64,000 nt of DNA from an uncultured Bacilli bacterium (GCA_934167665.1 CAKPLN010000005.1:33414-97413), one strand, 5' to 3'. Counted from the first letter of the stretch, positions 9,879 through 41,836 are shown. The notes: generated by a model not told the origin, from the letters alone. Numbers and translations are program-made.

Positions 9879-10067
9879 ACTAGCACGATTTCTCTTTTGA
9901 GAATTCTTAATTCCTTCTTTTTTAGCAGCTCTTCTTCTAACCCCTGGTTTATCGTAAGCTTCTCTTTTTCTACATTCTGAAGGGACACCATCTCTTGCTA
10001 CTTTCTGCTTAAATTTTCTTAGCGCCTGGTCAAGATTACCTCTAACAGTTACTTTAGTCGCCATCAT
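9864..10067 (-). CDS. rpsU: 30S ribosomal protein S21
   Basis: 67 aa and basic, with the S21 signature LDQALRKFKQKVARDGV...KREAYDKPGVRRR. Confidence 0.85.
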   Translation of the reverse strand: MMATKVTVRGNLDQALRKFKQKVARDGVPSECRKREAYDKPGVRRRAAKKEGIKNSQKRNRASNRDY

Positions 10068-10293
10068 TATCCCTCCCTTCGTTTTTAACTACAATGAATT
10101 ATAACAAAAGTTTTATTAGTTTTCAACAATTTTTTCCGTTTTTTTTCTTAAATTAAAGCATTTTCATACAAAATTCGCAAATTTTCACCAATTTCAATAC
10201 CAAAAGAATATAAATATTTAAATATTAAAGCTAATATAGGAATCATTAAAAGACCACATATAATTAAAATTGGCTTTTTATACTTTATAAAAA

Positions 10294-10464
10294 CTATTTT
10301 AAAGGACATAAACTATCATCTACAATTCTTCTTATAGCTGAGCCAGTACTTTTACCAGCGTCATATAAAATTTTAATCAAATTAACCATACTTGATAATA
10401 TAGTTCCTGTTATAGTAGTACCACCATACACATTTTTTAAATCATCATCTTCTATATTTCTCAA
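10294..10464 (-). CDS. double-glycine-leader bacteriocin-like peptide B (56 aa, TTG start)
   Basis: Not in the ORF track. Translation is (M)RNIEDDDLKNVYGG|TTITGTILSSMVNLIKILYDAGKSTGSAIRRIVDDSLCPLK. The leader has hydrophobics at -4, -7 and -12 and acidic residues at -8 to -11. GGAGGTG lies 8 nt upstream. The TTG start overlaps the stop of peptide A (TTGA). Confidence 0.5.
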   Translation of the reverse strand: MRNIEDDDLKNVYGGTTITGTILSSMVNLIKILYDAGKSTGSAIRRIVDDSLCPLK

Positions 10465-10598
10465 CCATTACACCTCCCTGGATTAGTAAAACCTTCTAAT
10501 ACTCCGGATAAAAAAACAACTATCGCTGAAACCGCAATACCAGTCCATACTGATCCACCAGTAATTACCTTCAATTCACTATTATCTAAACTTCTCAC
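10461..10598 (-). CDS. double-glycine-leader bacteriocin-like peptide A (45 aa, GTG start)
   Basis: Not in the ORF track. Translation is (M)RSLDNSELKVITGG|SVWTGIAVSAIVVFLSGVLEGFTNPGRCNG. The leader fits the LSxxELxxIxGG consensus closely. A GGAAGGAG RBS lies 5 nt upstream. The GTG overlaps the stop of the upstream 140-aa gene (GTGA). Confidence 0.6.
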   Translation of the reverse strand: MRSLDNSELKVITGGSVWTGIAVSAIVVFLSGVLEGFTNPGRCNG

Positions 10599-11017
10599 AA
10601 AATCTCCTTCCATACTAATTTAAAAATTTCAATAAAACCAATCTTTCTATCTAAAAAAACTAAATCAACAACATCATTTTCCTTCATCTTCTTCGTAGGA
10701 AAACTAATATAAACCAAATTATAAACCGTATTATTCCTCTTTATAGCACCCAACATTACCTCATTTATAGAATACTCATATCTAACATCATCAACATAAA
10801 GTATAGAATTTTTATATAAAATTTGAAGTTCACTATCAGAAACAACTGCCTCTACTAAAGAGTCCTTAGCTACAACTCCAGTAATTAAAAAATAACTATT
10901 AATCTTATAAAGAAAAGCCATAATAACACTAAAAAGTACCAATATTAAAAATAGTCCAACAACTATAAAAAGTCCTAACTTCTTTTCATAATTTCTTAAT
11001 CTCACTAATTTTACCAT
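10595..11017 (-). CDS. small membrane-anchored accessory protein of the bacteriocin operon (140 aa)
   Basis: N-terminal TM helix. It overlaps the ABC gene end and the peptide A start, so translational coupling is likely. Confidence 0.45.
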   Translation of the reverse strand: MVKLVRLRNYEKKLGLFIVVGLFLILVLFSVIMAFLYKINSYFLITGVVAKDSLVEAVVSDSELQILYKNSILYVDDVRYEYSINEVMLGAIKRNNTVYNLVYISFPTKKMKENDVVDLVFLDRKIGFIEIFKLVWKEIL

Positions 11018-13064
11018 CCTTCAACTTTAATATTCGGTTAAATAACTTATTTTCACTAAACCTATGACTAATAACTATAACCGTTTTTCCACTAAGATAA
11101 GTAAACATTTTCCTCATAATAAGCTTTGTCTTTTCAGAATCTATTTGACTAAAAACCTCATCAAAAATATAAATATCTCCATCATTAACTAAAGATCTTG
11201 CCAAAATTATTCTTTGTCTTTCCCCATTACTAAGATTACTACCATTTTCTTCTAATAATTGTTGATAACCTAAATCCTTAGAAATAATATCATCAACTCC
11301 AGTAATCTCTGCAATCTCTAAAAATTTATCTTTTGCTATATCTCTTCCTAAAACAATATTATTATAGATTGTATCAGTAAATAATGTTTCTAAACTGCTT
11401 ACATAAACAATATTTCTTCTTATTACATCCAAATGATAATGATTAATATCAATATTATTAATTGATACATAACCAAAAGGTACCTCAATATATTTCATCA
11501 AAATCTTCATGAGTGTACTTTTCCCACTACCACTACTGCCAGTCAATAAAATCCTCTCACCACAAGAAATCTCAAATGACAGATTAGTAAATAAAACTTT
11601 ACTATATGCAGTATAACTCAAATTATTAAACCTAATTTCACCAACTAATTTACAAAAAGAGTAATAATAATTTCCATTAAACTTCTCACAATCAATTGTA
11701 AATAACTCTTCAATCCTCTCATATGCTAATTTAAAATCTGTAAAACTGCCAATAAAAGTAAGAAGCCCATTAAAACTAAGCAAAAAATAATTAAAAACAC
11801 TTTGATAAACAAGTAAATTTCCCAGACTAATTTTTGATATAACTACCAAATAACTTCCATAGCCTAAAATAATAGTAACTAATAAATCATCTATAATATG
11901 CTTATAATTAGAAAAACAATTAGAAAAAAATACCAAAGAATAATTTCTTTCCAACAATTTTTTATACTTGAGTGCAAAAACATCAAATAACCTTTTTTCT
12001 AAATGTCTATTTTTTAAAGTTTCAGCACTAGATAATGCTTGTACTAAATCCGAATTAACTAAATCACTACTAAATTTTACTCTGGAAATATACTTTTTAT
12101 TAATCCTATCAAACACAATCTGACACATTAACATAACTATAGAAAACAAAAATATTAAAAGAAAAAGTCTCTTATTTAGTCTAAATAGTACAAAAGAAAA
12201 AACAATTAAACTTATAAAATCAGTGACAAAGAAACAACAAGCTTCAATAAGAAAAGACTTAACAGTATTTAAATCCTTAAATCGTGAAATTACTTCACCA
12301 GTTGTTCTATTTTTATAATATAAATATGGAAGTAGAAGAATATGATTATAAGTCTTAAAAGTAATTAAACTATCCATTAAATTACTACATTTTATTATTA
12401 AAATACCCCTTAACAAACTAGCCAATTCTCTAAAAATATATATTAGAAGAAGAACTGTACTAATCAAAATAATTGGTTTAGTTAAATGGTATTTTAAAGA
12501 AAATTCCAAAAGATATTTAAAATGGAAAGACGTAATTATTTGAAATGAAAATAAAATCATTGATAAAAGTAAAATCATTAATATCATTGCCTTGTATTTA
12601 AAAATAAATTCCCTCATAACTTTAACAATAATCTTTTTTTGTGACATAACAGGCAACTGTTTATATGGTTTAAGTAATATATACTTAGAACTAGACATTA
12701 ATTTAAACTCAGCTATAGATAAACTCCTCTTCCCCTTAGCTGGATCCATAACTAAAACTCTTTTCTTATCAATATCTATATCATATATTACAACAAAATG
12801 TTTATAGCTATTATTTATTACTACATGAGCAAGACAAGGTAAGTTATTCTTTTCTATTTTTAGCAAGTCTCCCTCAACACCAACTGCAGTAAAGCCAATT
12901 TTTTTAGCCGCTTCAATCAAATTATACGCCGAAACCCCAATCTTACTAGTATTTGTTATCTCTCTCAATAATTCTTTTGATATCTCTCCCCCATAATATC
13001 TAGTTACTGATAACAAACAACAAACACCACAATCTTTGGTACCATCTTGTAAAACTATCTTCAT
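10986..13064 (-). CDS. bacteriocin-processing ABC transporter with N-terminal C39 peptidase domain (ComA/LagD family)
   Basis: 692 aa. C39 catalytic Cys in GTKDCGVCCLL, a His region, a 6-TM domain, Walker A GSSGSGKST, signature LSNGERQRIILARS and Walker B IYIFDE. Confidence 0.9.
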   Translation of the reverse strand: MKIVLQDGTKDCGVCCLLSVTRYYGGEISKELLREITNTSKIGVSAYNLIEAAKKIGFTAVGVEGDLLKIEKNNLPCLAHVVINNSYKHFVVIYDIDIDKKRVLVMDPAKGKRSLSIAEFKLMSSSKYILLKPYKQLPVMSQKKIIVKVMREFIFKYKAMILMILLLSMILFSFQIITSFHFKYLLEFSLKYHLTKPIILISTVLLLIYIFRELASLLRGILIIKCSNLMDSLITFKTYNHILLLPYLYYKNRTTGEVISRFKDLNTVKSFLIEACCFFVTDFISLIVFSFVLFRLNKRLFLLIFLFSIVMLMCQIVFDRINKKYISRVKFSSDLVNSDLVQALSSAETLKNRHLEKRLFDVFALKYKKLLERNYSLVFFSNCFSNYKHIIDDLLVTIILGYGSYLVVISKISLGNLLVYQSVFNYFLLSFNGLLTFIGSFTDFKLAYERIEELFTIDCEKFNGNYYYSFCKLVGEIRFNNLSYTAYSKVLFTNLSFEISCGERILLTGSSGSGKSTLMKILMKYIEVPFGYVSINNIDINHYHLDVIRRNIVYVSSLETLFTDTIYNNIVLGRDIAKDKFLEIAEITGVDDIISKDLGYQQLLEENGSNLSNGERQRIILARSLVNDGDIYIFDEVFSQIDSEKTKLIMRKMFTYLSGKTVIVISHRFSENKLFNRILKLKDGKISEIKKL

Positions 13065-21393: not shown

Positions 21394-23996
21394 CTAACGT
21401 TTGTTACGGATAATAACTATACCAGAACCGCCAGAAGCGCCACAATTACCATAATAATCTCCACCGCCGCCTCCACCAGTGTTAGCTGTACCGCTTGCAG
21501 GGCCAGAACGACAGTAGCCACAATTATCGGATGTTCCACCTTCACCAGCTGAGCATCCTCGGCCTCCGCCACCGTTGCCACCAGAGCCGCCGCCCCAGCC
21601 GCCTCCGCCGCCTCCGCCGCCGTAGAATTTACTTCCAGAACCAAATTCACGTACACCAGAGCCACCAGAGCCACCACCATCAGGACTACGGCTTCCACCT
21701 CTTCCTGTACCAGCACCACCTGCACCATTACCGTATTGACCGGCATTGCCGCCTGATGCACTCCAACCAAAAGCAGTAGTTGTTCCGCCGTTGTTTCTAG
21801 GAGAGCCACCGTTTCCTATACTAATATAATATGATTGAGAAGTTGAAACATTTGTCGTGAAGGTTTGTGTATAACCGCCACCACCTCCACCTTGGCGACC
21901 ACCTCCGCCGCCTCCAACTAGGAAAACATTAATTCCATCAGAAGCCTTATTTAAATCACCAAAGGTTAAAGTACCACTAGTTAAAAGTCTTATTTTCCAA
22001 TTTCCAGACCAATTACTAGTATTAGATATCCTATTATCATTATCATCCACAATTTCATATCTTCCAGTATAAGAGAACTTAGGTATTGAACCTAGACTGA
22101 CACTAAATCTTCCTGAATTACAACTATTAGTATTTCCAGCAGCATCTTTTACATAACCATACCAAGTAATACCACTAGTTGAACCTTGAGTTGCAGATGA
22201 TGTTCCATTATAACTTGCACTACTACTCGTAGTTAATCCATAGGAAGCTACACCAGATAAACTATCACTCGTACTTATACTAACTGTAACATTAGACGTA
22301 TATGCATTACCAGAACCCGAACCAGATAAACTAATCCTACAACTAGGTGCCGTTTTATCTAGCTTAATACTTGTACTAGCTGAACTAGAACAATTGCCTG
22401 CATAATCACATGCCCTAGCATAATAAGTATATGAGCCTTCACTAGAAATAGAAAGATTAACACTTTTATCTATATTAGCAGAAGCTTGTGAACCAGAAAT
22501 AGTAGTCCAACTTGAGTTATTAGTTGAGTATTGGATACTTGCTAATCCAGAAGTCTTATCATTTGATCTTACCGATATATTATAGTTAGAATTGAACCAT
22601 TTATTGTTATTAGTATTTGTAATTGTAGGAGTACTTGGAACGTCCTTATCAATCTTTACTACTGTCTGATTTGAAGCAGAACAATTACCTGCATAATCAC
22701 AAGCTCTAAAATAATAAGAATAAGCACCAGCATTAGAAGCTGTAACACTAGATGTCTTAGAAGTGTTAGCAGAAGCTTGTGAACCAGAGATTGTAGACCA
22801 ATTTTTACTATCTGTTGAATATTGAATACTAGCTAAACCAGACAAATTATCTTTTGAAGTAGCAGTAATCTGATAATTTTTATTAACCCATTTATTGCTA
22901 TTTGGATTACTAACAGTTGGAGCACTTGGTAAAGTCTTATCAATCATGATAGTATTTTTAGCCGGCTCTGAACAATTATCAGCATAGTCACATGCCCTTA
23001 TCTCAACTAACTCATTTCGTTCGGCCGTAAACGGCGTCGTAATAAATGAATTACCAGCCGAGTTATTATATTTAACCCACTTATTAGCACTATTTGGATA
23101 ACGATATTCATAAAACATTACACCAGAATGTTCATCATTAGATGACACTCCAATTACATATTTATTAGTATTAACATAGCTAGCATTAGCCCATACTCCA
23201 TTGTAACTATTAGTTAAAACTGGCGTTACAGGATTAGTATTATCAAATTTTAACTTATCATCTGACCAGACATCACTAGCAAAACGGCCACGAACATCAA
23301 TTACATCATCACCATCTACAAAGAAATAGTATTCGCCATTTAATCCACTTTCAGTAATTGTATATGTTAATTCTTTCTCGCCATTGTCATTTCTAAAATT
23401 ATATTCTTTAAAATTAGTTGGTTCCTGATTCCTTACAGAACTCCATCCATAACGAATGCTTGTATTTGCATTAAGCCCTTCTTGAGCAGTAATTTTAAAT
23501 GTTATGTTCTTAGACTTAGACCAATTATTATTACCACCTACATCTTTAACAGTAACCTTAATAGTCGGCAAAGCAGAAACCGTATCATTACACCTTGAAG
23601 CTGTTTGATTATAAACAACATTATCATCTTTTGTACAGTATAAAGCTATCTCATACTTATACTTACCACCATCCCTTACAACATGAACATATGACTTATT
23701 ATCATCACACACTACGCCATCAGTAATATAATTTTTAATTAATGACTTAGAGCGCAAATCTCCATATGATATGTCATAACAGCCATCACCCGTAATACCA
23801 AATAAATCATTGGAATATGAATCAATATATAGCTTACCAGCATCTTCCATTCTATCAGCATAAGTTTCAAACTTTTTATTACGATTTCTAGCCTGTAACT
23901 GTTGAACACCTGGAAGAGCCAACACAGTTATAATTCCAATTATTGTAATAACAACTAAAAGTTCTACTAAAGTAAATCCCTTTTTCTTATTCTTCA
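21394..23996 (-). CDS. giant pilin-like protein with type IV prepilin N-terminus, three tandem RACDYAGNCS modules and a Gly-rich C-terminal tail
   Basis: The probable start is MKNKKKG|FTLVELLVVITIIGIITVLA (class III signal with Glu at +5). There are about 95-aa repeats. The C-terminal roughly 190 aa is Gly/Ser/Asn-rich (GGGGGGRQGGGGGG...GGGGGGGGWGGGSGG) and encoded by a GC-rich stretch. Confidence 0.6.
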
Positions 23997-31058: not shown

Positions 31059-31310
31059 CCACTAAGGACGAATAGTTCGCGGTACCACCTTAATTTATAA
31101 CAGAAAAAAATTCCATTATACACTCAAATACTATAACGCGTTACCGTATTTATCTTATCCATAAATCGCATTTGAAAGTGATCTTAATATCAACTTCATA
31201 TCTGTTTTCACCATACACAGACTCTCTACAAATCTATTAATATTACGTCTTTCGCACTTGCTTTCAAAAACTAATATATCACATCTTTTATCCCTTTACA
31301 AGAAATTAAT
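31059..31310 (-). promoter_or_regulatory. T-box riboswitch leader (Ile) upstream of ileS
   Basis: The minus transcript carries AAUUAAGGUGGUACCGCG (the T-box box, about 31076-31096), then a terminator helix plus U7. A candidate AUC specifier lies in aagAUCacu. Confidence 0.75.
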
Positions 31311-31320
31311 AAGTAAATTT

Positions 31321-33801
31321 TTAGTCCTGAGTATTTTTTATATACGTCTTACTAGAACTATCAAATTTAAGCTTACCATTTAAAAATCTTTTAACCGCCA
31401 AATTATATAGTTTATATTCATGAGGAAGTTGCATTTGATCAATGAAATCTAATGTTTGTCTTTTCTCATCATCAGTTACCTCATGTAGTTTTCCATCAAC
31501 AGAAAGTACCAGCTTCTCTCCCATTACAGATTCTTCAGTATACTTTAATAAATTTCTGTTTTTCAAAATAAACTGAGAAATATCCGCTTTTAGTGGTCTT
31601 CCTCGCATTAAACTTGAAAACTTGCCAAGAGGAACATTAGTTCTTAGTCTATAGTCCAAATAATCAAAAGGTCTTACTTTATCATCTTCCCTAACCCCAT
31701 TGATTATATCCCTATAAATTCCTTCCAAAACTTCATCGTTTACAGCACAACAGCCACGTTTTTGTAAATCCAACTTTTTACTATAAGCTTCCATTAAAGA
31801 AGCATCAGATTGTAACAATTTTTTAGCAGTCATAAATGCATGTACAGGAATACCTCTATTTTGGCAAAACTCATAAATAGTATGAGACTTATTATCGCTT
31901 AAAAAGTTCATAAAAAGATCATAAGCATCATCTACGCGTTTTCTCCGTTTTACACTTAAATCTTCCTGTTCTAAAGTTTGTTTTTCTTTTTCCAATTTAC
32001 TTATAAAGCATGGCAACTTTTTTAAAAAGACTTCATCATCACCCAAAATAAAATCAACATCTTCAATACTAAGCCCCATTCCCATAACTATAGGAAGCAA
32101 ATTTTCACCACTATCATAAGCTTTAAAAAGAATTGCAAACAAATCTAAAGCATTGTCCCTTATAAACTTCGCTTCATAAGAATTCAACAATTTACGAAAA
32201 GTTCTTCGTGAAACAAACTCTTTAACTTTATCTTGTTGAGCATAATCCTTATATCTATAAAGAAGAGCATGTCTTTCACAAAAAGGTATTTTACTAAGTT
32301 CCTCTACAAAATCACTTTGTAATTTTTCTAAAGTTCTCGTCTTAACATCATAAGAATAGTCCCATTGCTTACGACTATAAGTATCAAACCACTCCTTTAG
32401 TCTTAAAAATTGTTTCTTGTCACTATCATCTACTTGAGTTCTCATTATATATTCAAAAGTATATTGTTGTGGAGAAGCAATACTATCAGTTAACAAATGA
32501 AAATATTTTTCAAATATAATTCTATCTCTTCCATAAATAAAACCATCATTAAAAGTAGTTGGTTTGTTTGAAACATATGCTTCCCAAGACTTAGTAGTAG
32601 ACAATTTATTAAATCCAATCAAAACATTATTATTAATTATAATCTCATATAAATTCCTAGTTAAAGTTTTACCCTTTCCTTCACTATTATAAAAATCAAT
32701 AAATTCATCAGGTAAAAAAGCATATCTTTCCCTTCTATACTCAAAGAAAGCTGATCTAACAGAACTGCAAAAATCAGCATATTCATCCTCTAAATTATCC
32801 TTCTCAAATTGTCTGTTTCTATAAGATACTAATAAATTCTCAAATTGCCTAGTACTTAAAACAACACCCTTTTCTTCTGCTGTAACTATAAATTTTTTTA
32901 AATCATCCAATGAAATAAAAACATCATCAAAAGCATCGTAAAAGTCATCTTCCCTAGAATAAGCTCTATAAGTAAATGCCAATAACATATTATTAACCCT
33001 AGATGAATAACATAAACCACTTTTAAGTCTTTTCTCTAATGATTTGAATTCTAAATATTTATTTTTACATTTACCAACTTTAGTATCAATAAAGGAACTC
33101 ATTAATTTTAAATAAGCATTATTAGGTACAAAATCAGCATGTTTACAGAACTCTATTTCACCATTTCTACTCTTATAAAGTACCCTATATAGCGTCTCAG
33201 GAGCAAAGAAAGTAAAATAAGTCAAAAGATCACTTCTAGCTATTTTTAAACGCTTATAATACTCAGAATCTCTATCACCATTAATAAACATTTCATAATT
33301 AATATAATTTAAAAGATTAGTTACCGTTTCTAAATCAGCAGAAAAGTCTGGTGAATTTAATGTCATATCTAACATATCAGACATAGTAGCATTATATAAA
33401 GAATTACATTCCTTAAAACCATTACTACTAAATACTGCTTTCTTATCCTTCGCAAGATGAATCTTCATACACAAATCATAAAACTCATCACTTCTAACTG
33501 GTAGACAATGTAAAAAATAAACAAATACAGGTATATAAAGTAATGGATCAGCATCACTTCTTATATAAGAAGAATATTTCTTAGTAAAAAGTTCAATCAC
33601 ACCATCTAATAATTCGGAAGGAGTAGTAAAAAGTCCATCTCTTCCAAATAAAAGTTTAATCTTTTCAAAGTCATAACTATCAAAAAAGCCCTCATAAGTA
33701 TCAATTTTATTACCCAAAACAACGTTTGAAGCAAAATACTTATTTAATTCTTCAATTTCTTTATTAAACTCCTCAATTAACAAACTTTTAAAACTTCGCA
33801 C
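31321..33801 (-). CDS. large hypothetical soluble protein (826 aa)
   Basis: Intact ORF with no TM helix and no recognisable motif. Lies between divIVA and ileS. Confidence 0.5.
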   Translation of the reverse strand: MRSFKSLLIEEFNKEIEELNKYFASNVVLGNKIDTYEGFFDSYDFEKIKLLFGRDGLFTTPSELLDGVIELFTKKYSSYIRSDADPLLYIPVFVYFLHCLPVRSDEFYDLCMKIHLAKDKKAVFSSNGFKECNSLYNATMSDMLDMTLNSPDFSADLETVTNLLNYINYEMFINGDRDSEYYKRLKIARSDLLTYFTFFAPETLYRVLYKSRNGEIEFCKHADFVPNNAYLKLMSSFIDTKVGKCKNKYLEFKSLEKRLKSGLCYSSRVNNMLLAFTYRAYSREDDFYDAFDDVFISLDDLKKFIVTAEEKGVVLSTRQFENLLVSYRNRQFEKDNLEDEYADFCSSVRSAFFEYRRERYAFLPDEFIDFYNSEGKGKTLTRNLYEIIINNNVLIGFNKLSTTKSWEAYVSNKPTTFNDGFIYGRDRIIFEKYFHLLTDSIASPQQYTFEYIMRTQVDDSDKKQFLRLKEWFDTYSRKQWDYSYDVKTRTLEKLQSDFVEELSKIPFCERHALLYRYKDYAQQDKVKEFVSRRTFRKLLNSYEAKFIRDNALDLFAILFKAYDSGENLLPIVMGMGLSIEDVDFILGDDEVFLKKLPCFISKLEKEKQTLEQEDLSVKRRKRVDDAYDLFMNFLSDNKSHTIYEFCQNRGIPVHAFMTAKKLLQSDASLMEAYSKKLDLQKRGCCAVNDEVLEGIYRDIINGVREDDKVRPFDYLDYRLRTNVPLGKFSSLMRGRPLKADISQFILKNRNLLKYTEESVMGEKLVLSVDGKLHEVTDDEKRQTLDFIDQMQLPHEYKLYNLAVKRFLNGKLKFDSSSKTYIKNTQD

Positions 33802-33873: not shown

Positions 33874-34317
33874 CTATGACTCCAATTCTAATACTTCTAT
33901 TTCATCAGCAATTTTTAATTGCTGCTCAATTATTAAACGAAACTTTTTCTTAAAGATATCTATATTTTTTTCTAAAAGTAAACTATTACGTTCTACTCTA
34001 GCAGCTCGTAGTAAAGCCTCATTAACTATTATATCTGCATCTTCTTTAGCCTGTTTAATAATCTCATCAGACTCATCTCTTGCCATACGTTTAATATCAT
34101 TGCCAACAGCCTCAGCTCTAGCAACAGCTACACTCAAATTATCTTCAATACTTTTATAATGTGCAAGTTGTGCTTTAAGTTGTATAATCTCTTCTTTTTG
34201 ACTTTGACAACTAGAAATAATACCTTCCGTTTGAGTAATCACATCACTAACAAATTGATTTACTTCACTACGATTATATCCATTAGCCTCATAACTAAAT
34301 TTTTCCACCATGATCAC
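33874..34317 (-). CDS. divIVA: DivIVA-domain protein
   Basis: 147 aa coiled-coil with a DivIVA N-terminal domain, in the conserved sepF-divIVA-ileS position. Confidence 0.7.
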   Translation of the reverse strand: MIMVEKFSYEANGYNRSEVNQFVSDVITQTEGIISSCQSQKEEIIQLKAQLAHYKSIEDNLSVAVARAEAVGNDIKRMARDESDEIIKQAKEDADIIVNEALLRAARVERNSLLLEKNIDIFKKKFRLIIEQQLKIADEIEVLELES

Positions 34318-34337: not shown

Positions 34338-34796
34338 TTAGAAAAAATCGTCCTCATCATCTTCAGTTTCTTTATCTTTTTTATTCTTAGCCTGCTTATT
34401 GGCAGCACCATTAACCTCATCGCTAATTTTTCCTTCGACATTTACATTTTTAGGTGTACATAGGAAAATACCACCACCTAATTTTTGTAAATCTCCACCA
34501 ATGGCATAAATAGTACCATATAGAAAATCAACAATCCTCTTAGCTTGATCAGGAGTAACTCTCTTTAAATTAACAACAACAGCTACACGATTTTTTAAAT
34601 AATCAGCAATTTGTTGACTTTCAGAATAAGCTCTTGGTTCAAGTAACATCATTTTACTACCAGCAACACCATTTTCAACATGATATTCTTCTCTAGTAGT
34701 AGTATAATACTCCTCCTCTGGAGAAACTTCAGGTTCTACATCATTTCCACCTAAAAAATTTTTTAATTTATCTAAAGCCATATAAATAACCTCCAA
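34338..34796 (-). CDS. sepF: cell division protein SepF
   Basis: SepF core [43 protein letters not shown]. Confidence 0.8.
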
Positions 34797-34862: not shown

Positions 34863-36746
34863 TTACATAACCCCCATATTATTAGGAACATCAGTCTCTA
34901 TAAATCTTCCATTACCACCCATACTGATTCCTTGAGAAACAGCAGCTGGGGCTGGAGAAACATTAGTATTTTGTGCACTAGCTTGCTCATACCAAACCGT
35001 ACTAATATCAACATTATCACTCATTGGTCTAGGATCAGGTAAATCAATATACATAGAAACTGGAATTTTAAAAGCATTACCAAAAGCAATACAGTTACCA
35101 GGCTTCAAATTTTTCAATTGTTGAACTATTTCAATTGAAATATTAGGAACCATATTTTTAATATAGTCTAAATCCTTAGGATGTAAAGTTCTAAGAATAA
35201 CAAAATTAGTACATTGTGAAATACACGTATCAGAAAGCTCACTAGGTCTTTGGGTTATTAAACCTAAAAATATTCCATACTTACGTCCTTCCTTAGTGAT
35301 TCTTTCAAATATATTATAACCAAGTAAATCAACATCTCGATCCTTAATAACATAACGATGCGCTTCTTCGATAATTATATGAAATGCTCTAGAACCTCTA
35401 GGATAAGTTATAGCAGCAACATTAAATAACATTTTAGAAACTATTTTAGTAATAACCTTTGCCATTCGATCATCAACATAATTAATATTAAAATTAATAA
35501 TTTGGCATTTACTACCATCAGATAAACGCATTAAATTTTCAACATAAGTTCTTTTATCAACAAAACCAGAATAAGTAAAATATTCTCTATAATTACTATT
35601 GATTAAAGTATGTAATCTAACACTTAAAATATTAGCATAATCAAATACTTTATTACTCTTTAGTATACCTTCATTAATCATAGCAAAATCCATTGCTAAT
35701 TCTAAATCAGATAACGTATAATATGGATTTAAATCATCAACCCTAATAACATCAGACTCATCAACTATATATCCTCTAATGAATTCTACTACTAATTCCA
35801 TCTCTTGCATTTTACCAGTTTTATCAACAAATAAACATTGTTTAAGCGTTCTAACATATCCAGGTTGAGCAATTTGACTTTCAAGATTTAATTCCGGTGT
35901 ATTAAATTTAGTTAATACCGCTACTACCTGATCTCTAATCTTCGTAGAATCATTACCACTAAGTAAAATATCTTGTAAAGCTCGAGCAATTATATCATTT
36001 TTCTTTCTTACAACTGATGCCGAATTTCCAGTAAGTATAGGTACTAGTTTAAGTGTTTTTTCAATTATTGGTAGCTGTGTAGGATTACTAGCATCAAGCA
36101 ACAAAGCTAAATCATCAACATCAAGTAACCATACTGGAATTCTAAGTAATTCACCCGTAGATGAAGAATCTGTATTAGTAGTAATATATTTATAATTAAG
36201 TTTAGGGTTAATACTATGTAAATTAGAAAAAGCTGAATTATATTCACCATAAGCATCAAAGAAAAAGAAATTAGCATTAACAGGCAGTCTTTTATTTAAA
36301 AATAATTTTTGTAAAATAGAAGCAACAGTACAACTCTTTCCTGAACCACTATTTCCCAAAACAGAAAAATGATTACTAAAAAAATCATTAATATTTACTT
36401 TTATTTTATATCCATCATATATATTACTAGTTCCAAAATTAGTTTCACCAGGTAATAATTCCTGACTACCTAGCATACTACTTAATTCTTGGAGATTTAT
36501 TAGTCTAGGAGATGATTTAAAAGATGGTTTCTTACTAGCACCAGGAACGAAATTACCAGAAACAAATTCCCCAACTATTACAGTAGTCATAACGCTTTGA
36601 TTAACATTAACAACTTCAGCTGCTACTTTTCTATCTACATCATCGAAAACAACATGTAAGCCAACTAAATTAGGTTGTCTATTAATATCTATTCCTAATT
36701 CAATTAAGACCCTATTATCAATGATCTCTAATACTTTTCCTAGCAC
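34863..36746 (-). CDS. HerA/FtsK-superfamily ATPase (DUF87/HerA-like, N-terminal HAS-barrel)
   Basis: GTG start with an AGAGGGTG RBS. Walker A GNSGSGKS, Walker B/DEAH-like HIIIEEAHRY, arginine-finger region EGRKYGIFLGLITQRPSEL, and the N-terminal barrel KVLEIIDNRVLIELG. Confidence 0.65.
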   Translation of the reverse strand: MLGKVLEIIDNRVLIELGIDINRQPNLVGLHVVFDDVDRKVAAEVVNVNQSVMTTVIVGEFVSGNFVPGASKKPSFKSSPRLINLQELSSMLGSQELLPGETNFGTSNIYDGYKIKVNINDFFSNHFSVLGNSGSGKSCTVASILQKLFLNKRLPVNANFFFFDAYGEYNSAFSNLHSINPKLNYKYITTNTDSSSTGELLRIPVWLLDVDDLALLLDASNPTQLPIIEKTLKLVPILTGNSASVVRKKNDIIARALQDILLSGNDSTKIRDQVVAVLTKFNTPELNLESQIAQPGYVRTLKQCLFVDKTGKMQEMELVVEFIRGYIVDESDVIRVDDLNPYYTLSDLELAMDFAMINEGILKSNKVFDYANILSVRLHTLINSNYREYFTYSGFVDKRTYVENLMRLSDGSKCQIINFNINYVDDRMAKVITKIVSKMLFNVAAITYPRGSRAFHIIIEEAHRYVIKDRDVDLLGYNIFERITKEGRKYGIFLGLITQRPSELSDTCISQCTNFVILRTLHPKDLDYIKNMVPNISIEIVQQLKNLKPGNCIAFGNAFKIPVSMYIDLPDPRPMSDNVDISTVWYEQASAQNTNVSPAPAAVSQGISMGGNGRFIETDVPNNMGVM

Positions 36747-36855
36747 TATAACACCCTCTTTTACTCTTATATAAGTATATCAAATATATAGACAAAAAAA
36801 AAGTCAATAAATGACTTTTTGCTTCTTTTCTTGCTTTAAACTTTCCTATAATATT

Positions 36856-36884
36856 AAAAACGCATATACACATACTGTATATGC
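36856..36884 (-). terminator. terminator hairpin between the 156-aa gene and the HerA-like ATPase gene
   Basis: GCAUAUACAguaugUGUAUAUGC plus U5 on the minus transcript. Confidence 0.55.
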
Positions 36885-36930
36885 AAGAAAAATAATATAT
36901 TTTTAAATTAATTAAGTAATATAAAACTAT

Positions 36931-37401
36931 TTACCAAGCATCTGATTTATTGGCATCCCATTCAGCATCGCCAGCTGCTAAAGCATCGGCTGTCTGCTGT
37001 ATTGTATTAACATATGATTCTCCAGTTTTTTCATCAGTATACCTATAACTATCAGTATCATCCATAATCTTATTATAGGCTTCATATGCAAGATTGCGAG
37101 CGGAATTATCAGTTTCCATTTTATTCATAATATCTTGAATTACACTTGTTGAGTCTTCTAAATAACTATCAATTTCCTCTTCTTTTTTAGACAATATAGA
37201 AATAAAATTTTCGGAAATCTCATTAAACGTTTTGCTCTCACCAACTCTAAAAGACGTATCGGCATAATCTGCCATTTTATTTTTGGAATTACTTATAGCA
37301 GTTGATAAATCGCTAGATAATATACTAAATTGCTTAACAGCCTCTTGCCCTTTGATATGTGCAGTGCTAGGATATTTATATCTTATCCATTCTCTACTCA
37401 T
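36931..37401 (-). CDS. hypothetical helical protein (156 aa)
   Basis: Overlaps the stop of the upstream 488-aa gene by 8 nt, so they form an operon. No TM helix; acidic. Confidence 0.5.
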   Translation of the reverse strand: MSREWIRYKYPSTAHIKGQEAVKQFSILSSDLSTAISNSKNKMADYADTSFRVGESKTFNEISENFISILSKKEEEIDSYLEDSTSVIQDIMNKMETDNSARNLAYEAYNKIMDDTDSYRYTDEKTGESYVNTIQQTADALAAGDAEWDANKSDAW

Positions 37402-38860
37402 CTATATCACTCTCACTTTCATCAAATAAGGATGCTTTGAATCCAACAGTAGATTTTCCAAAAACCTCATTATCATCTTCAATTTTTTTATCATCAGTAG
37501 TATCTTTTTCTTTGATATCTTCATCATCATTTAAATCACTATCAGAATTAATAGTATTATTATCAATGCCTTCTTCCATCTCACTATCTGTCTTCTTTTT
37601 ATCATAAACAATTTTTCCACCAACAGCCATAGATGCAGCGGCTACAATGGCACCACTAATGGCAATACCAGATTTTTTAATGCCATCACTTCCATTAAGC
37701 TTACTATTGGCTGATAAAGACGGAATTAAAAATTTACTATCAGCAGCAGAATCGGAAAGTAATGTATTACTTGGAATTGAATTATCATCGCCAAGTTCTA
37801 ACAATTCATCAGATGGTTCAAGTAAGGATAACATAGCACTACCGCCAACAACACCAGTCTGTCCATTGGCAGTTGGTATAACCATTTCTTCATCATCAGA
37901 TAAATCTTCTTCACTAGAAGAATTGTCTCCCGCATTACCAGAACCTCCACTATCCTCACTAGGTTGTGGAAGTCCGCCGCCTCCACCGCCGCCAAAATCA
38001 CCGCCTCCTCCTCCACCTGAAGGAGCCTTTTTTGTTTTAAGTAATTCATCTAATCCAGTCGAATCACCACCAGAATAGGCTAAAATAGCACCAATTACAT
38101 TATTTATGGTATTTCTGACAACACCAAATTCTGCTTCTATTTCACTCGAAATTTTACCCAATACCACACTGGCTCTTCTATCTATAATAAATTTATCATA
38201 AGGATATTCCAAAGAATCATAGAAATCATTATCATAACTTATAATAGACTTGAATGGTTCAATGAATTCACCTTTAGAACTGATTAAAGCTCTAATGGCA
38301 TCTGAAGTTACATTGGGGTCATAAAATATATAATCATCATTATACTTTAAATTTAAATTTTCATTTAAATTACCAAGATTGAAACCATCAAGAGGAATAT
38401 AAGCATTATCTGTATCTAGAGTTTCATCATCGCTAGTCACTGGATTAGCATCAGCATAATTTTTTAAAACCTGCTCCTTAGATTCATAATCGGTACCTAC
38501 ATCTAAACCACTAGCACTTAAAAGTTCAGCTTCCTTCATATCACCATATGTAGCCGCAAACTCACGTGATGTTTGCTCATATGAACGCTTTGTTTCTTCA
38601 TAAGCAGCAGTTGGATCTGAAATTATTGGTTGAAGTTGTTTTCCATCATCGCCAACTAAATCTTCACAGTGAGCCTCATCATAATACTTCAAAGTTAAAA
38701 TTTGGGCATTTAAATCATTTGAACCAGCCAAACCAGCATCCCAAAGAAGACTATTTAACGCTGGTGCACCATATCTCTCTGTAAATTCCTTGCGAGCAGT
38801 ATCATATATTACTTGCAAAGATTCAGTACTGTCAACTGGTCCTAAACTTTCACTAGCCAT
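37394..38860 (-). CDS. hypothetical acidic, Gly-rich, C-terminally TM-anchored protein (488 aa; start refined)
   Basis: The ATG at 38860 is preceded by GGAGGTGGAttt (MASESLGPVD...). The track's 13-aa N-terminal extension lacks an RBS. Contains GGGGGGDFGGGGGGG, a Ser/Asp/Glu-rich linker, one TM helix (IAISGAIVAAASMAVGG) and an acidic C-tail. Confidence 0.5.
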   Translation of the reverse strand: MASESLGPVDSTESLQVIYDTARKEFTERYGAPALNSLLWDAGLAGSNDLNAQILTLKYYDEAHCEDLVGDDGKQLQPIISDPTAAYEETKRSYEQTSREFAATYGDMKEAELLSASGLDVGTDYESKEQVLKNYADANPVTSDDETLDTDNAYIPLDGFNLGNLNENLNLKYNDDYIFYDPNVTSDAIRALISSKGEFIEPFKSIISYDNDFYDSLEYPYDKFIIDRRASVVLGKISSEIEAEFGVVRNTINNVIGAILAYSGGDSTGLDELLKTKKAPSGGGGGGDFGGGGGGGLPQPSEDSGGSGNAGDNSSSEEDLSDDEEMVIPTANGQTGVVGGSAMLSLLEPSDELLELGDDNSIPSNTLLSDSAADSKFLIPSLSANSKLNGSDGIKKSGIAISGAIVAAASMAVGGKIVYDKKKTDSEMEEGIDNNTINSDSDLNDDEDIKEKDTTDDKKIEDDNEVFGKSTVGFKASLFDESESDIDE

Positions 38861-38989
38861 AAATCCACCTCCAACTACCATTAAAAAAATACCAAACATT
38901 TAATATTAAACACATAAGTATCAATCCAATTATATAATTTAATAATACACCATAATAAAATTAATGGCAATAAAAAGTGTCAAATACAA

Positions 38990-39628: not shown

Positions 39629-41836
39629 TTATACTGTAAATTTTTTCTTTTTTATATCATAAACAAAATATCCAACATATCCTATCATCGCACCAATAGA
39701 AATTAATATACCAATTTTTAAACCAGGGACTTCATAGGAAAAATAAATTTCATTATCCCCACTGTTTACTTTAATTGCCATAAAACCATTATCAACTTTT
39801 TCAATTTTTACTTTTTCCCCATTAATAGTTGCCTCAAAACCACTATCATACGGTACAGTATAAATTACTAAAGCCGCACTACTAGAATTTATCTTAGAAT
39901 AAAAGCCATTACGTTCAAATCTAAAATCTTCAGACTTAACTATTGTATCATCATTAAACAAATCTCCATACTTTTTAATTTGTTCTTCATTTAATACTAC
40001 TCCATTATTTAAAAATTCTATTTTCCTATCATAATCTAACAAAGAAAAATTAGAGGCAGAAATATAACTATTAACACCAAAACCAATATCTTTAGCCGCA
40101 TTATTATAATATACTTTATACGGATATTTTTCATAAACCAAAGAATAATCTTCCAGATCATCATAACTACATCCAATAATATATTTAACTCCTAAAAAAT
40201 TATTCAATAGCTGATCATTAATATCAATTTCTGTAGAAACCATTCTATAATAATTAATACTATTATAAAATTCAAAATTACTACCATTAATATTAGAATT
40301 AAATGACTTTATATTATTAAATCTTCCAACTTCTCCTAAATTAAAAGCACAAGATTTAAGACTATTAGTACGACTATTACTATCTATTTCTAAATAATCA
40401 TTAACATTTAAATATTTTATATACCAGTCTTCTACACCAATATTCTTTTGTTTATAAACATAAACTACATAATTACCCCACACACTACCATAGATGAATA
40501 CTCCTAAAATTAAAAGAATTAATTTTTTCTTATGATCTTTATTTCTACAAACAAAATATGTATATATTAAATTAATAAGACTTATGATAATCATCAAAAT
40601 AAAATACTCTTTATCAAAAATAATATTAAAATCATTAATTCTTAAAGCATACACAAAAGTACCTAAAAGAAAAACTAAACATAACGCTCCATATATTTTC
40701 AATCCATCTTTGATATTATCAAGTTCTAAATCTAAATATTTAATAGAAACAAGACTTAGAATAAGTATAGGCATATAAAACCATCTAGCATAATATGTTG
40801 TATTAAACAAGAAAAACGCACTATTTAGTATTGGAATATTCATCATTAATACGCAAATCATTAATAAAATACTATCCCATTTCTTATAATTTTTAATCAA
40901 ATATGAAAGTGCTAAAACACAACCTGCAACAGGTAAATAAGCCTCAATACTACTATAATCAGCCTCTGTTAAAAGTGCTCTATAAGACATTGTTTGTGGT
41001 GCAAACAAAAAACCTCTAAGTATCTCTATATAATTTTTAATTGGATGTTTTATAGCTTCAATTAGTGTCCAACCACCACCTAGTCTTGGATTAGAAAGTG
41101 TAAATAAAAAAGTTGGAATTAAAACAAAGGCAGCCATCAAAGTACCTAAAATACTCTCTAATAAAATTGTTTTAAACTTGGTAATTTCAAAATGATATTC
41201 CTTTGTAAATACTTTAACAAAAAAGTAAATTATCACAAAAACAACTTCTCCAATAAAGAAGAACCAATTAGTTAAAGCTAATAAGAAAACAACTACACCA
41301 AATAAATGTTTTTTATCATCATACATTAAATTATCTAAACTATATAAAAGTAATGGGAAAAAAGCCACTACATCATGAAAATGAAAAAATAAAACATTAG
41401 TAAGTTGAAATCCCGAAAAAGAATATAATAAAGAACCAAGTACAGCATAGTTTTTATTTTTAACATATCTCTGTAAAAATAAGTAAGCAGTAAAACCACT
41501 AACTGCATATTTTAATATCAAAAGTATTCCAGCTAAATAAGGAAAAAATTTAGCTGGAAATAAATATCCTATCATATTAAATGGACTAAAAAGATTATAA
41601 AAACTATAAGTTCCAATAAAATTACTACCTAGTTCATTATACCAAGTCCAAAAAATACTACCTTCTTTTATAGAATTATTTATGTTTATATTAAATGGTA
41701 TTTGTTGAAAATTATAATCAGCCATTAGAGAAAACATTCCCTTACCAGTTATAATCCAAGGTAAAGTAATAATAGTTCCTAATAAAAATGATAATAGAAA
41801 AGACAATAAAGCTTTATTTTTAATAATTTTTTTCAT
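39629..41836 (-). CDS. YfhO-like polytopic membrane glycosyltransferase-family protein
   Basis: 735 aa with more than 12 TM helices in the N-terminal two-thirds and a C-terminal extracytoplasmic domain. Architecture only. Confidence 0.4.
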   Translation of the reverse strand: MKKIIKNKALLSFLLSFLLGTIITLPWIITGKGMFSLMADYNFQQIPFNININNSIKEGSIFWTWYNELGSNFIGTYSFYNLFSPFNMIGYLFPAKFFPYLAGILLILKYAVSGFTAYLFLQRYVKNKNYAVLGSLLYSFSGFQLTNVLFFHFHDVVAFFPLLLYSLDNLMYDDKKHLFGVVVFLLALTNWFFFIGEVVFVIIYFFVKVFTKEYHFEITKFKTILLESILGTLMAAFVLIPTFLFTLSNPRLGGGWTLIEAIKHPIKNYIEILRGFLFAPQTMSYRALLTEADYSSIEAYLPVAGCVLALSYLIKNYKKWDSILLMICVLMMNIPILNSAFFLFNTTYYARWFYMPILILSLVSIKYLDLELDNIKDGLKIYGALCLVFLLGTFVYALRINDFNIIFDKEYFILMIIISLINLIYTYFVCRNKDHKKKLILLILGVFIYGSVWGNYVVYVYKQKNIGVEDWYIKYLNVNDYLEIDSNSRTNSLKSCAFNLGEVGRFNNIKSFNSNINGSNFEFYNSINYYRMVSTEIDINDQLLNNFLGVKYIIGCSYDDLEDYSLVYEKYPYKVYYNNAAKDIGFGVNSYISASNFSLLDYDRKIEFLNNGVVLNEEQIKKYGDLFNDDTIVKSEDFRFERNGFYSKINSSSAALVIYTVPYDSGFEATINGEKVKIEKVDNGFMAIKVNSGDNEIYFSYEVPGLKIGILISIGAMIGYVGYFVYDIKKKKFTV

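Follow-up and report, generated by a model that had tools for sequence, protein, structure and literature searches.

To our knowledge, bacterial HerA ATPases are known as one half of two-gene machines, together with NurA in repair and together with Sir2 or DUF4297 in phage defence. A member of the HerA family is expected to be a hexameric translocase of double-stranded DNA. In the solved Sir2–HerA complexes, HerA reaches into the Sir2 ring with its N-terminal barrel (PMC11514289), and SftA of Bacillus subtilis, a soluble translocase of the wider superfamily, is brought to the Z-ring by SepF or FtsA (PMC9320952). Here, we describe a HerA gene that lies directly upstream of sepF in a stretch of 64,000 nucleotides from an uncultured Bacilli bacterium (GCA_934167665.1, CAKPLN010000005.1:33414-97413), which was analyzed as a whole and is referred to as the window. 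In the literature that was searched, we found neither a stand-alone core HerA in these bacteria nor a HerA–sepF operon.

Upstream of HerA, the window contains two further genes, which we term A and B, and a preliminary description made from the sequence had combined all three into a membrane-associated translocation or segregation module. We consider it rather probable that these genes belong to two unrelated units. One of them would be an A–B cassette, equipped with a promoter-like site and a terminator of its own, that was inserted between a lipoprotein gene and HerA. The other would be HerA itself, a partner-less P-loop ATPase of small-genome gut Bacilli that would be kin to the HerA subunit of Sir2–HerA and would have no effector gene. 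A partner-less core HerA that is related to an immune motor and lies near division or replication genes is unusual.

HerA Motifs and Closest Relatives

The translated HerA gene contains the Walker A, Walker B, and arginine-finger motifs that the preliminary description had read in this 627-aa protein (Table 1). The DUF87/HerA central domain of Pfam (PF01935) was matched with 72.4 bits at a cut-off of 23.2, and FtsK_SpoIIIE (PF01580) gave 19.6 bits, which is under its cut-off of 24. In 16 orthologues with identities down to 31%, the catalytic residues G131, G134, G136, K137, K489, and G491 never vary, and at least 90% of the proteins retain E460 and R488. Judged by these features, the protein belongs to the HerA-clade ATPases, and all three motifs are intact. 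It has no transmembrane segment and thus would be soluble, like SftA, and its leader contains no cis-regulatory RNA of Rfam.

Fifteen HerA models of PADLOC matched the protein, ten of them at E < 1e-30. The best of these, PDLC04102, reached 374 bits (E = 2.6e-112) but covered residues 101–593 only. All equivalog models of NCBIfam scored far lower than their cut-offs: the antiphage HerA models NF042943 and NF042944 gave 153.8 bits (cut-off 800) and 145.6 bits (cut-off 850), and the HerA repair models gave 93–117 bits (cut-offs 800–970), so that HerA cannot be assigned cleanly to a known defence family. The conjugation model conju_CD1110 gave 34.8 bits at a cut-off of 325, and no conjugation gene is nearby.

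The nearest outgroups are the HerA proteins of Sir2–HerA systems (SaHerA, 8YHO; Paenibacillus, 8WIV; E. coli, 8XAU; PDLC04102), with 32–36% identity over the ATPase core. The HerA of the window and Sir2-linked HerA have in common a helical insertion, a C-terminal brace ending in DPxPxS...W[YF], and the same catalytic motifs. At the profile level, the alignment extends over the full length and includes the putative N-terminal HAS barrel: residues 4–569 of the orthologue profile align to residues 4–544 of the HerA from S. aureus Sir2–HerA (PDB 8YHO), and residues 20–216 align to residues 40–238 of 8WIV. This signal for the barrel is found with profiles only, as residues 1–115 used as a single sequence matched no solved HerA, and residues 1–102 fail to align in a pairwise comparison with the Sir2-linked protein P0162. 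In contrast to Sir2–HerA, the HerA of the window would be vertically inherited, lies in housekeeping operons and not in defence islands, and has no linked Sir2.

Among the solved structures, HerA–DUF4297 (PDB 9C1M) was the best profile match with 236.6 bits, split into two stretches, of which the best covers residues 420–590 in the C-terminal part of the ATPase. Unlike in that system, no conserved effector-type gene adjoins HerA, although DUF4297 itself was not searched across the loci; HerA is flanked by sepF and B, which has no recognized domain, in the window and by housekeeping genes elsewhere. Sulfolobus HerA of the HerA–NurA system (PDB 4D2I) belongs to the same ring-ATPase clade (173.6 bits), but in contrast to archaeal and Deinococcus HerA–NurA, neither NurA nor mre11-rad50 was found in the window or among the conserved neighbor clusters. 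SftA, FtsK, and SpoIIIE are members of the same superfamily but of a different clade.

Many HerA orthologues have disordered extensions rich in Gln, Asn, and Pro, which cannot be aligned with each other but share the short motif [NQ][RK]F[IF]Q. The motif is C-terminal in the window, where it reads NGRFIE, and in about ten other species (L009, L011, L012, L016, L019, L022, L028, L030, P0138, and P0139 are the motif-bearing orthologues); in P0139, it is located in an N-terminal extension instead. It thus resembles a position-independent motif, and a putative function in docking is possible. Other extensions were seen in P0142, P0143, and P0151 (L094, L095, and L199–L210, in the ylxM–ffh context described below), in which HerA carries 200–350 disordered C-terminal residues rich in Ser, Asn, Thr, and Pro; the extension of P0143 contains three copies of the repeat EHNPALDFG.

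Gene Neighborhoods and Conservation of HerA

We surveyed 160 related loci drawn from genome and metagenome collections, 80 of which are species loci from the genome collection, and read about 17 kb around each HerA orthologue per genome; in 54 distant viral loci, the HerA match alone was examined. The best 80 species genomes for HerA are all metagenome-assembled genomes of uncultured gut Bacilli, 'Mollicutes', or 'Tenericutes' (48–71% identity), and the closest named relatives of the protein are annotated as 'Mycoplasma sp. CAG:877'. Candidatus Faecimonas, which is among the 80 genomes, is listed as Bacilli incertae sedis in the NCBI taxonomy. The host lineage of the stand-alone HerA probably corresponds to the GTDB order RF39.

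In the 80 species loci, sepF follows HerA directly in 36 cases, with a median gap of 76 bp. Four loci have one opposite-strand gene between HerA and sepF, two have sepF at a distance of about 5 kb, 29 contain no sepF although at least 1.5 kb downstream of HerA was covered, and the remaining nine are truncated. HerA is therefore found directly upstream of sepF in 36 of the 71 informative species loci. In a simple neighbor-joining tree, these sepF-linked proteins form one clade with a few secondary exceptions. In the window, 81 nt without a terminator separate the HerA stop codon from the sepF ATG, and of 39 adjacent pairs from different species, all but 2 lack a terminator-like hairpin at this place.

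Other clades have other neighbors. The sister clade shows the order yqeG–yqeH–HerA (15 loci). In 27 metagenome loci, divergently oriented jag–yidC–rnpA genes are followed by HerA–dnaA–dnaN, which places HerA in the origin region. In 28 further loci, HerA follows ftsY–ylxM and precedes ffh, and several of these HerA proteins carry a long disordered C-terminal extension rich in Ser, Asn, and Thr. A smaller group follows gatCAB, with genes assigned by characteristic motifs, and in one lineage, a 39%-identical orthologue on two contigs is preceded by rmuC at a distance of 43 bp. The division context that had been proposed for HerA thus holds as conserved synteny in the whole clade of the window, but in the sister clades, HerA lies next to yqeGH, dnaA, ffh, or rmuC.

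The conservation of HerA resembles that of a housekeeping gene. Across species, its identity to the protein of the window (48–77%) tracks that of IleRS, AsnRS, and SepF. Within the species, the ratio of nonsynonymous to synonymous polymorphisms (pN/pS) is 0.00–0.07 for HerA and 0.04–0.12 for asnS. Full-length orthologues form about 15–20 clusters at 50% clustering, and further proteins align only from about residue 100 onwards. No close relative was found on viral contigs, where the best match was 30–33% identical. A patchy, mobile distribution as in defence islands was not observed, as the synteny of HerA with housekeeping blocks is maintained throughout the 160 loci. In view of these sequence comparisons, HerA is under strong purifying selection and appears to be a single-copy, vertically inherited, core-like gene.

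Downstream of HerA, the window contains sepF, divIVA, an orphan gene for an 826-aa protein, and ileS. The orphan had no match in Pfam, PADLOC, NCBIfam, or PHROGs. Its neighbors have a lower pN/pS than the orphan (about 0.22), which forms a second variable slot flanking the HerA–sepF–divIVA block.

Several further neighborhoods deserve mention. In ten related species (L010, L011, L013, L015, L016, L019, L020, L022, L023, and L025), the order is asnS–PP2C–lipoprotein–HerA–sepF–divIVA, with a gene about 700–900 bp upstream of HerA that was recognized as a PP2C-type Ser/Thr phosphatase by sequence inspection; the species of the window has a gene for a YfhO membrane protein at this position. One exception to the sepF linkage is L013 (10168-15741), where HerA is directly followed by a type VII secretion cluster and the locus lacks sepF. 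The cluster encodes a WXG100-like 98-aa protein, a YukD-like 96-aa protein, and a separate EssC of 1535 aa. In L165 (13-4629), which belongs to another HerA clade, a 1538-aa EssC gene is divergent from HerA; a 98-aa open reading frame (ORF) beside this EssC was rejected as a spurious low-complexity ORF. The type VII genes beside HerA in these two loci may be a coincidence.

Possible Role of HerA

If HerA behaves like its family, it would form a hexameric ring and translocate a polymer by means of ATP, most probably double-stranded DNA, in housekeeping chromosome maintenance. By analogy, DNA is the probable substrate. In the clade of the window, HerA would be co-expressed with sepF and divIVA, and beside FtsK, it might be a second soluble translocase at the division site, comparable to SftA in Bacillus subtilis. 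HerA resembles SftA in being soluble, and the HerA gene lies directly upstream of sepF in the whole clade, but the linkage to sepF is absent in the sister clades. A division-coupled role is therefore put forward only tentatively, and on this analogy we rate it as somewhat unlikely.

Several points weigh against a partner-less housekeeping HerA as outlined above. It is family membership alone from which DNA translocation by HerA is deduced. The neighborhoods differ by clade, with division, origin, signal recognition particle, and ribosome-assembly GTPase genes or rmuC next to HerA, and the link to sepF may be mere synteny; as the neighborhoods vary in this way, the associations give no single functional theme. 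A partner may also be encoded elsewhere, as about 17 kb per genome was covered, and the core-like character was likewise read from these retrieved loci. Finally, the strongest hidden Markov model (HMM) match of HerA is to a defence model of PADLOC, PDLC04102.

Among the alternatives, a DNA repair or recombination motor holds up best. HerA would then act in end resection or on intermediates in a manner similar to HerA–NurA, with an unlinked nuclease such as RmuC. The closely spaced rmuC of the 39%-identical orthologue, the adjacency of one HerA clade to dnaA–dnaN–recF, and the clear sequence relationship to Sulfolobus HerA agree with this view. However, the adjacency to rmuC is confined to one lineage, and in other loci, the gene lies at a distance of 7 kb or is missing. 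A NurA-like gene was seen beside no orthologue, and the NCBIfam equivalogs for repair HerA remained far under their cut-offs. We therefore regard a repair function as unlikely.

It was in principle also conceivable that HerA is an antiphage motor with an unlinked effector (Sir2, DUF4297, or another one) or the leftover of a Sir2–HerA system without its effector. The match to PDLC04102 points in this direction, as does the fact that the top sequence matches in the PDB are DUF4297–HerA and Sir2–HerA structures. In addition, a SIR2_2 gene precedes each of the nearest outgroup HerA proteins, P0162 (32% identity, residues 103–586) and P0155 (36%), which lie in defence islands. Nevertheless, Pfam, PADLOC, and NCBIfam scans revealed no nuclease, Sir2, or conjugation domain in the neighbors of HerA in the window, which confirms what the preliminary description had noted. 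When we used two Sir2 partners in tblastn searches of the loci, matches were restricted to the outgroup loci L090, L091, and L096, and none were found in loci with a full-length stand-alone HerA. The low scores of the NCBIfam antiphage equivalogs also argue against this explanation, and the N-terminal region of about 100 residues, which corresponds to the Sir2-docking barrel (PMC11514289), is not alignable with that of P0162. Moreover, HerA shows a stable housekeeping synteny and a purifying selection as strong as that of asnS, which is unlike patchy defence genes. An antiphage function is thus improbable.

The possibility that HerA substitutes for a missing FtsK as the segregation pump of reduced genomes, which its place in the HerA/FtsK superfamily and its position ahead of sepF–divIVA might suggest, can hardly be upheld, because in this lineage, at least six species loci (L024, L036, L045, L052, L053, and L059) encode a canonical membrane-anchored FtsK within 2–6 kb of HerA; for species with such an FtsK near HerA, a replacement is contradicted. 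These FtsK proteins have the motifs PHLLVAGATGSGKSV, DELADLM, and ATQRPS as well as N-terminal transmembrane helices. In some of the loci, ftsK is followed by a deoD-like gene, two putative M16 peptidase genes, HerA, sepF, and divIVA.

A partner-less core HerA as the second unit of the locus would point to a cellular role of HerA in bacteria, for a protein that is conserved like a tRNA synthetase in an abundant uncultured gut lineage. It would be a concrete case for an exchange of roles between immune and housekeeping ring motors and would give a bacterial setting to the old proposal that HerA-type pumps take part in chromosome segregation. More speculatively, and with a rather low probability, HerA could be a Sir2–HerA-type motor that was stripped of its effector, or the ancestral cellular form of the immune version; it would then serve as an essential housekeeping translocase throughout this lineage of gut Bacilli, under the control of division (sepF–divIVA) or of the origin (dnaA), with docking via the tail motif, as a second soluble chromosome pump beside FtsK.

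The A–B Pair

Genes A and B are arranged as the preliminary description had stated, with a 488-aa membrane protein A that has a Gly tract, an acidic linker, a transmembrane helix, and a tail, and an acidic helical 156-aa protein B. The end of A, with its stop codon, and the beginning of B share 8 nt, so that the two genes are translationally coupled. Protein A is composed of an exchangeable helical module at the N-terminus, a conserved central domain, the Gly tract, a disordered linker that is acidic and rich in Ser, the transmembrane helix, and the tail, and it has an isoelectric point of 4.05. Its structural model was poor overall (mean predicted local distance difference test score, pLDDT, of 45.8) and confident for the helical N-terminal module only. 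Protein B is helical with an isoelectric point of 4.47, and its model is a three-helix bundle (pLDDT 88.9).

Among 5.8 billion clustered proteins, A had 13 homologues and B had four, and there was no match in Pfam, PADLOC, NCBIfam, or PHROGs. Fold searches of the PDB with the two models gave nothing below E = 0.1, and B resembled only generic helical bundles of the BAR-like or PPE-like type. The profile HMMs of A and B, applied to all ORFs of at least 70 aa in 88 loci, matched L004–L008 only, all of which are from the same species. Next to HerA, the A–B pair was absent in the 80 other species loci. The sister species, with a HerA of 77% identity, has the order asnS–lipoprotein–HerA–sepF–divIVA, and the gap between the lipoprotein gene and HerA is empty.

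Strains of the species of the window share 97–100% identity in HerA but differ in the slot that separates it from the lipoprotein gene. In the strains that have both A and B, A is just 44–82% and B just 27–49% identical. In L004, A and B are followed by fragments of a decayed second copy, and L008 has the arrangement A–B–B'–A'. An alignment of the A alleles showed that the N-terminal modules are interchangeable, and that the central domain, linker, transmembrane helix, and tail are conserved. As the lipoprotein gene directly precedes HerA in related species, it appears to mark the upstream edge of the slot that holds the A–B cassette.

The slot also contains its own transcription signals. A terminator-like hairpin between B and HerA, which had been noticed before, was found again, and it is predicted to close the A–B unit and to insulate it from HerA. 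A second hairpin (AAAGTCA...TGACTTT) with a T-run and a subsequent extended –10 element (TGnTATACT) precede the ribosome-binding site of HerA. Upstream of A, there is a promoter-like site (TTGCCA-17-TATTAT), although matches to the promoter consensus were no commoner than in shuffled sequence.

The restriction to one species, the variability between strains beside a constant HerA, and the intervening terminator all argue that A and B are not partners of HerA. We therefore regard A–B as what these comparisons indicate, an apparently independent, fast-evolving, species-restricted, and strain-variable insertion that is unrelated to HerA. A single membrane-associated machine for translocation or segregation, built from HerA, the membrane protein A, and the helical protein B, is extremely unlikely even though the genes are adjacent on the same strand, A is membrane-anchored, and type VII secretion genes also abut HerA in L013, since neither the sister species nor any of the 80 other species loci has A or B, and since the two genes are hypervariable or pseudogenized within the species in which HerA is invariant and are separated from HerA by a terminator. 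The proposed three-gene module thus failed the linkage test that the preliminary description had itself set, as linkage to sepF was kept clade-wide and linkage to A and B was not, and nothing in our data points to the link to sporulation that had been considered for it. In this sense, the locus exemplifies that gene adjacency in a single genome can mislead, as the apparent partners of HerA are a hypervariable insertion.

The pattern of A and B combines species restriction, mosaicism, tandem duplication, and decay within an otherwise fixed syntenic block. Such a pattern is typical of genes that take part in conflict or surface variation, and we favor such a role for A and B; as no homology backs it, we hold this view at low confidence. 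The cluster in L013 had raised the idea that A and B are substrates of type VII secretion, which was dropped, as no homology supports it. A pair of 449-aa and 166-aa proteins encoded upstream of HerA in L018 is similar to A and B in length, but the larger protein reads as a radical-SAM enzyme, as judged by a motif only.

One strain showed an additional peculiarity. In L006, synonymous divergence reaches 0.14 in the HerA gene (9944-11827, compared with 34863-36746 in the window) and 0.11 in the lipoprotein gene, which also borders on the slot, whereas asnS, the YfhO gene, divIVA, and the 826-aa orphan are at 0.015–0.035. This suggests that a recombination tract in L006 spans the variable A–B slot and extends into HerA.

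Features of the Window

The window has a G+C content of about 28%, and every large ORF is on one strand. The coordinates of the features discussed above and of some additional ones are listed in Table 1.

Table 1. Positions of features in the window, counted from its first nucleotide.
Feature	Position	Strand	Evidence or remark
HerA-clade ATPase, 627 aa	34863-36746	(-)	ORF, Pfam DUF87, PADLOC HerA model; GTG start
HerA Walker A, GNSGSGKS, residues 131-138	36333-36356	(-)	Translation
HerA Walker B, HIIIEEAHRY, residues 456-465	35352-35381	(-)	Translation
HerA arginine-finger region, EGRKYG...QRPSEL, residues 486-504	35235-35291	(-)	Translation
HerA disordered C-terminal tail	34866-34988	(-)	
NGRFIE motif in HerA tail, residues 612-617	34896-34913	(-)	
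sepF	34338-34781	(-)	Pfam SepF, 95.8 bits; downstream of HerA
divIVA	33874-34317	(-)	Pfam DivIVA, 79.5 bits; last conserved member of the HerA-sepF-divIVA block
Orphan, 826 aa, between divIVA and ileS	31321-33801	(-)	Seen in loci of this species only
Intrinsic-terminator-like hairpin, 10 pairs and T-run	36861-36885	(-)	Between B and HerA
Gene B, 156-aa acidic three-helix protein	36931-37401	(-)	ORF
Gene A, 488 aa from Met14	37394-38860	(-)	Public gene calls (P0121); 501-aa ORF reaches 38899
Gly tract of A, G6-DF-G7	37973-38017	(-)	
Transmembrane helix of A, residues 398-418	37607-37669	(-)	Single; acidic 70-aa tail follows
Promoter-like site upstream of A	38942-38970	(-)	Consensus match only
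Lipoprotein, 188 aa	39021-39587	(-)	Directly upstream of HerA in related species (cluster c3)
YfhO membrane protein	39629-41836		At the PP2C position
T-box leader upstream of ileS	31061-31266	(-)	87.6 bits, E = 8.5e-20; Rfam gathering score 93
T-box terminator hairpin	31078-31048		
Pilin-like protein, 884 aa	21394-24048	(-)	N-terminal methylation motif
G6-xx-G6 tract of pilin-like protein	21874-21915		Low complexity
Pilin-like protein, 616 aa	26093-27943	(-)	N-terminal methylation motif
Protein of 2549 aa	50031-57680	(-)	Glucoamylase-like, GH94 supersandwich, and GH94 catalytic domains

The T-box leader of ileS scored slightly under the Rfam gathering score, so that it escaped the default scan, and a hairpin serves as its terminator. 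The two pilin-like proteins are unusually large. The longer one ends in a Gly_rich_2 domain with G6-RQ-G6 tracts, which is the source of the motif that had been thought to link it to protein A; as the tract common to both proteins is of low complexity and no homology was detectable, this link was abandoned. The 2549-aa protein, which judging by its domains would be of the glycan phosphorylase or synthase type, is very large for a small genome.

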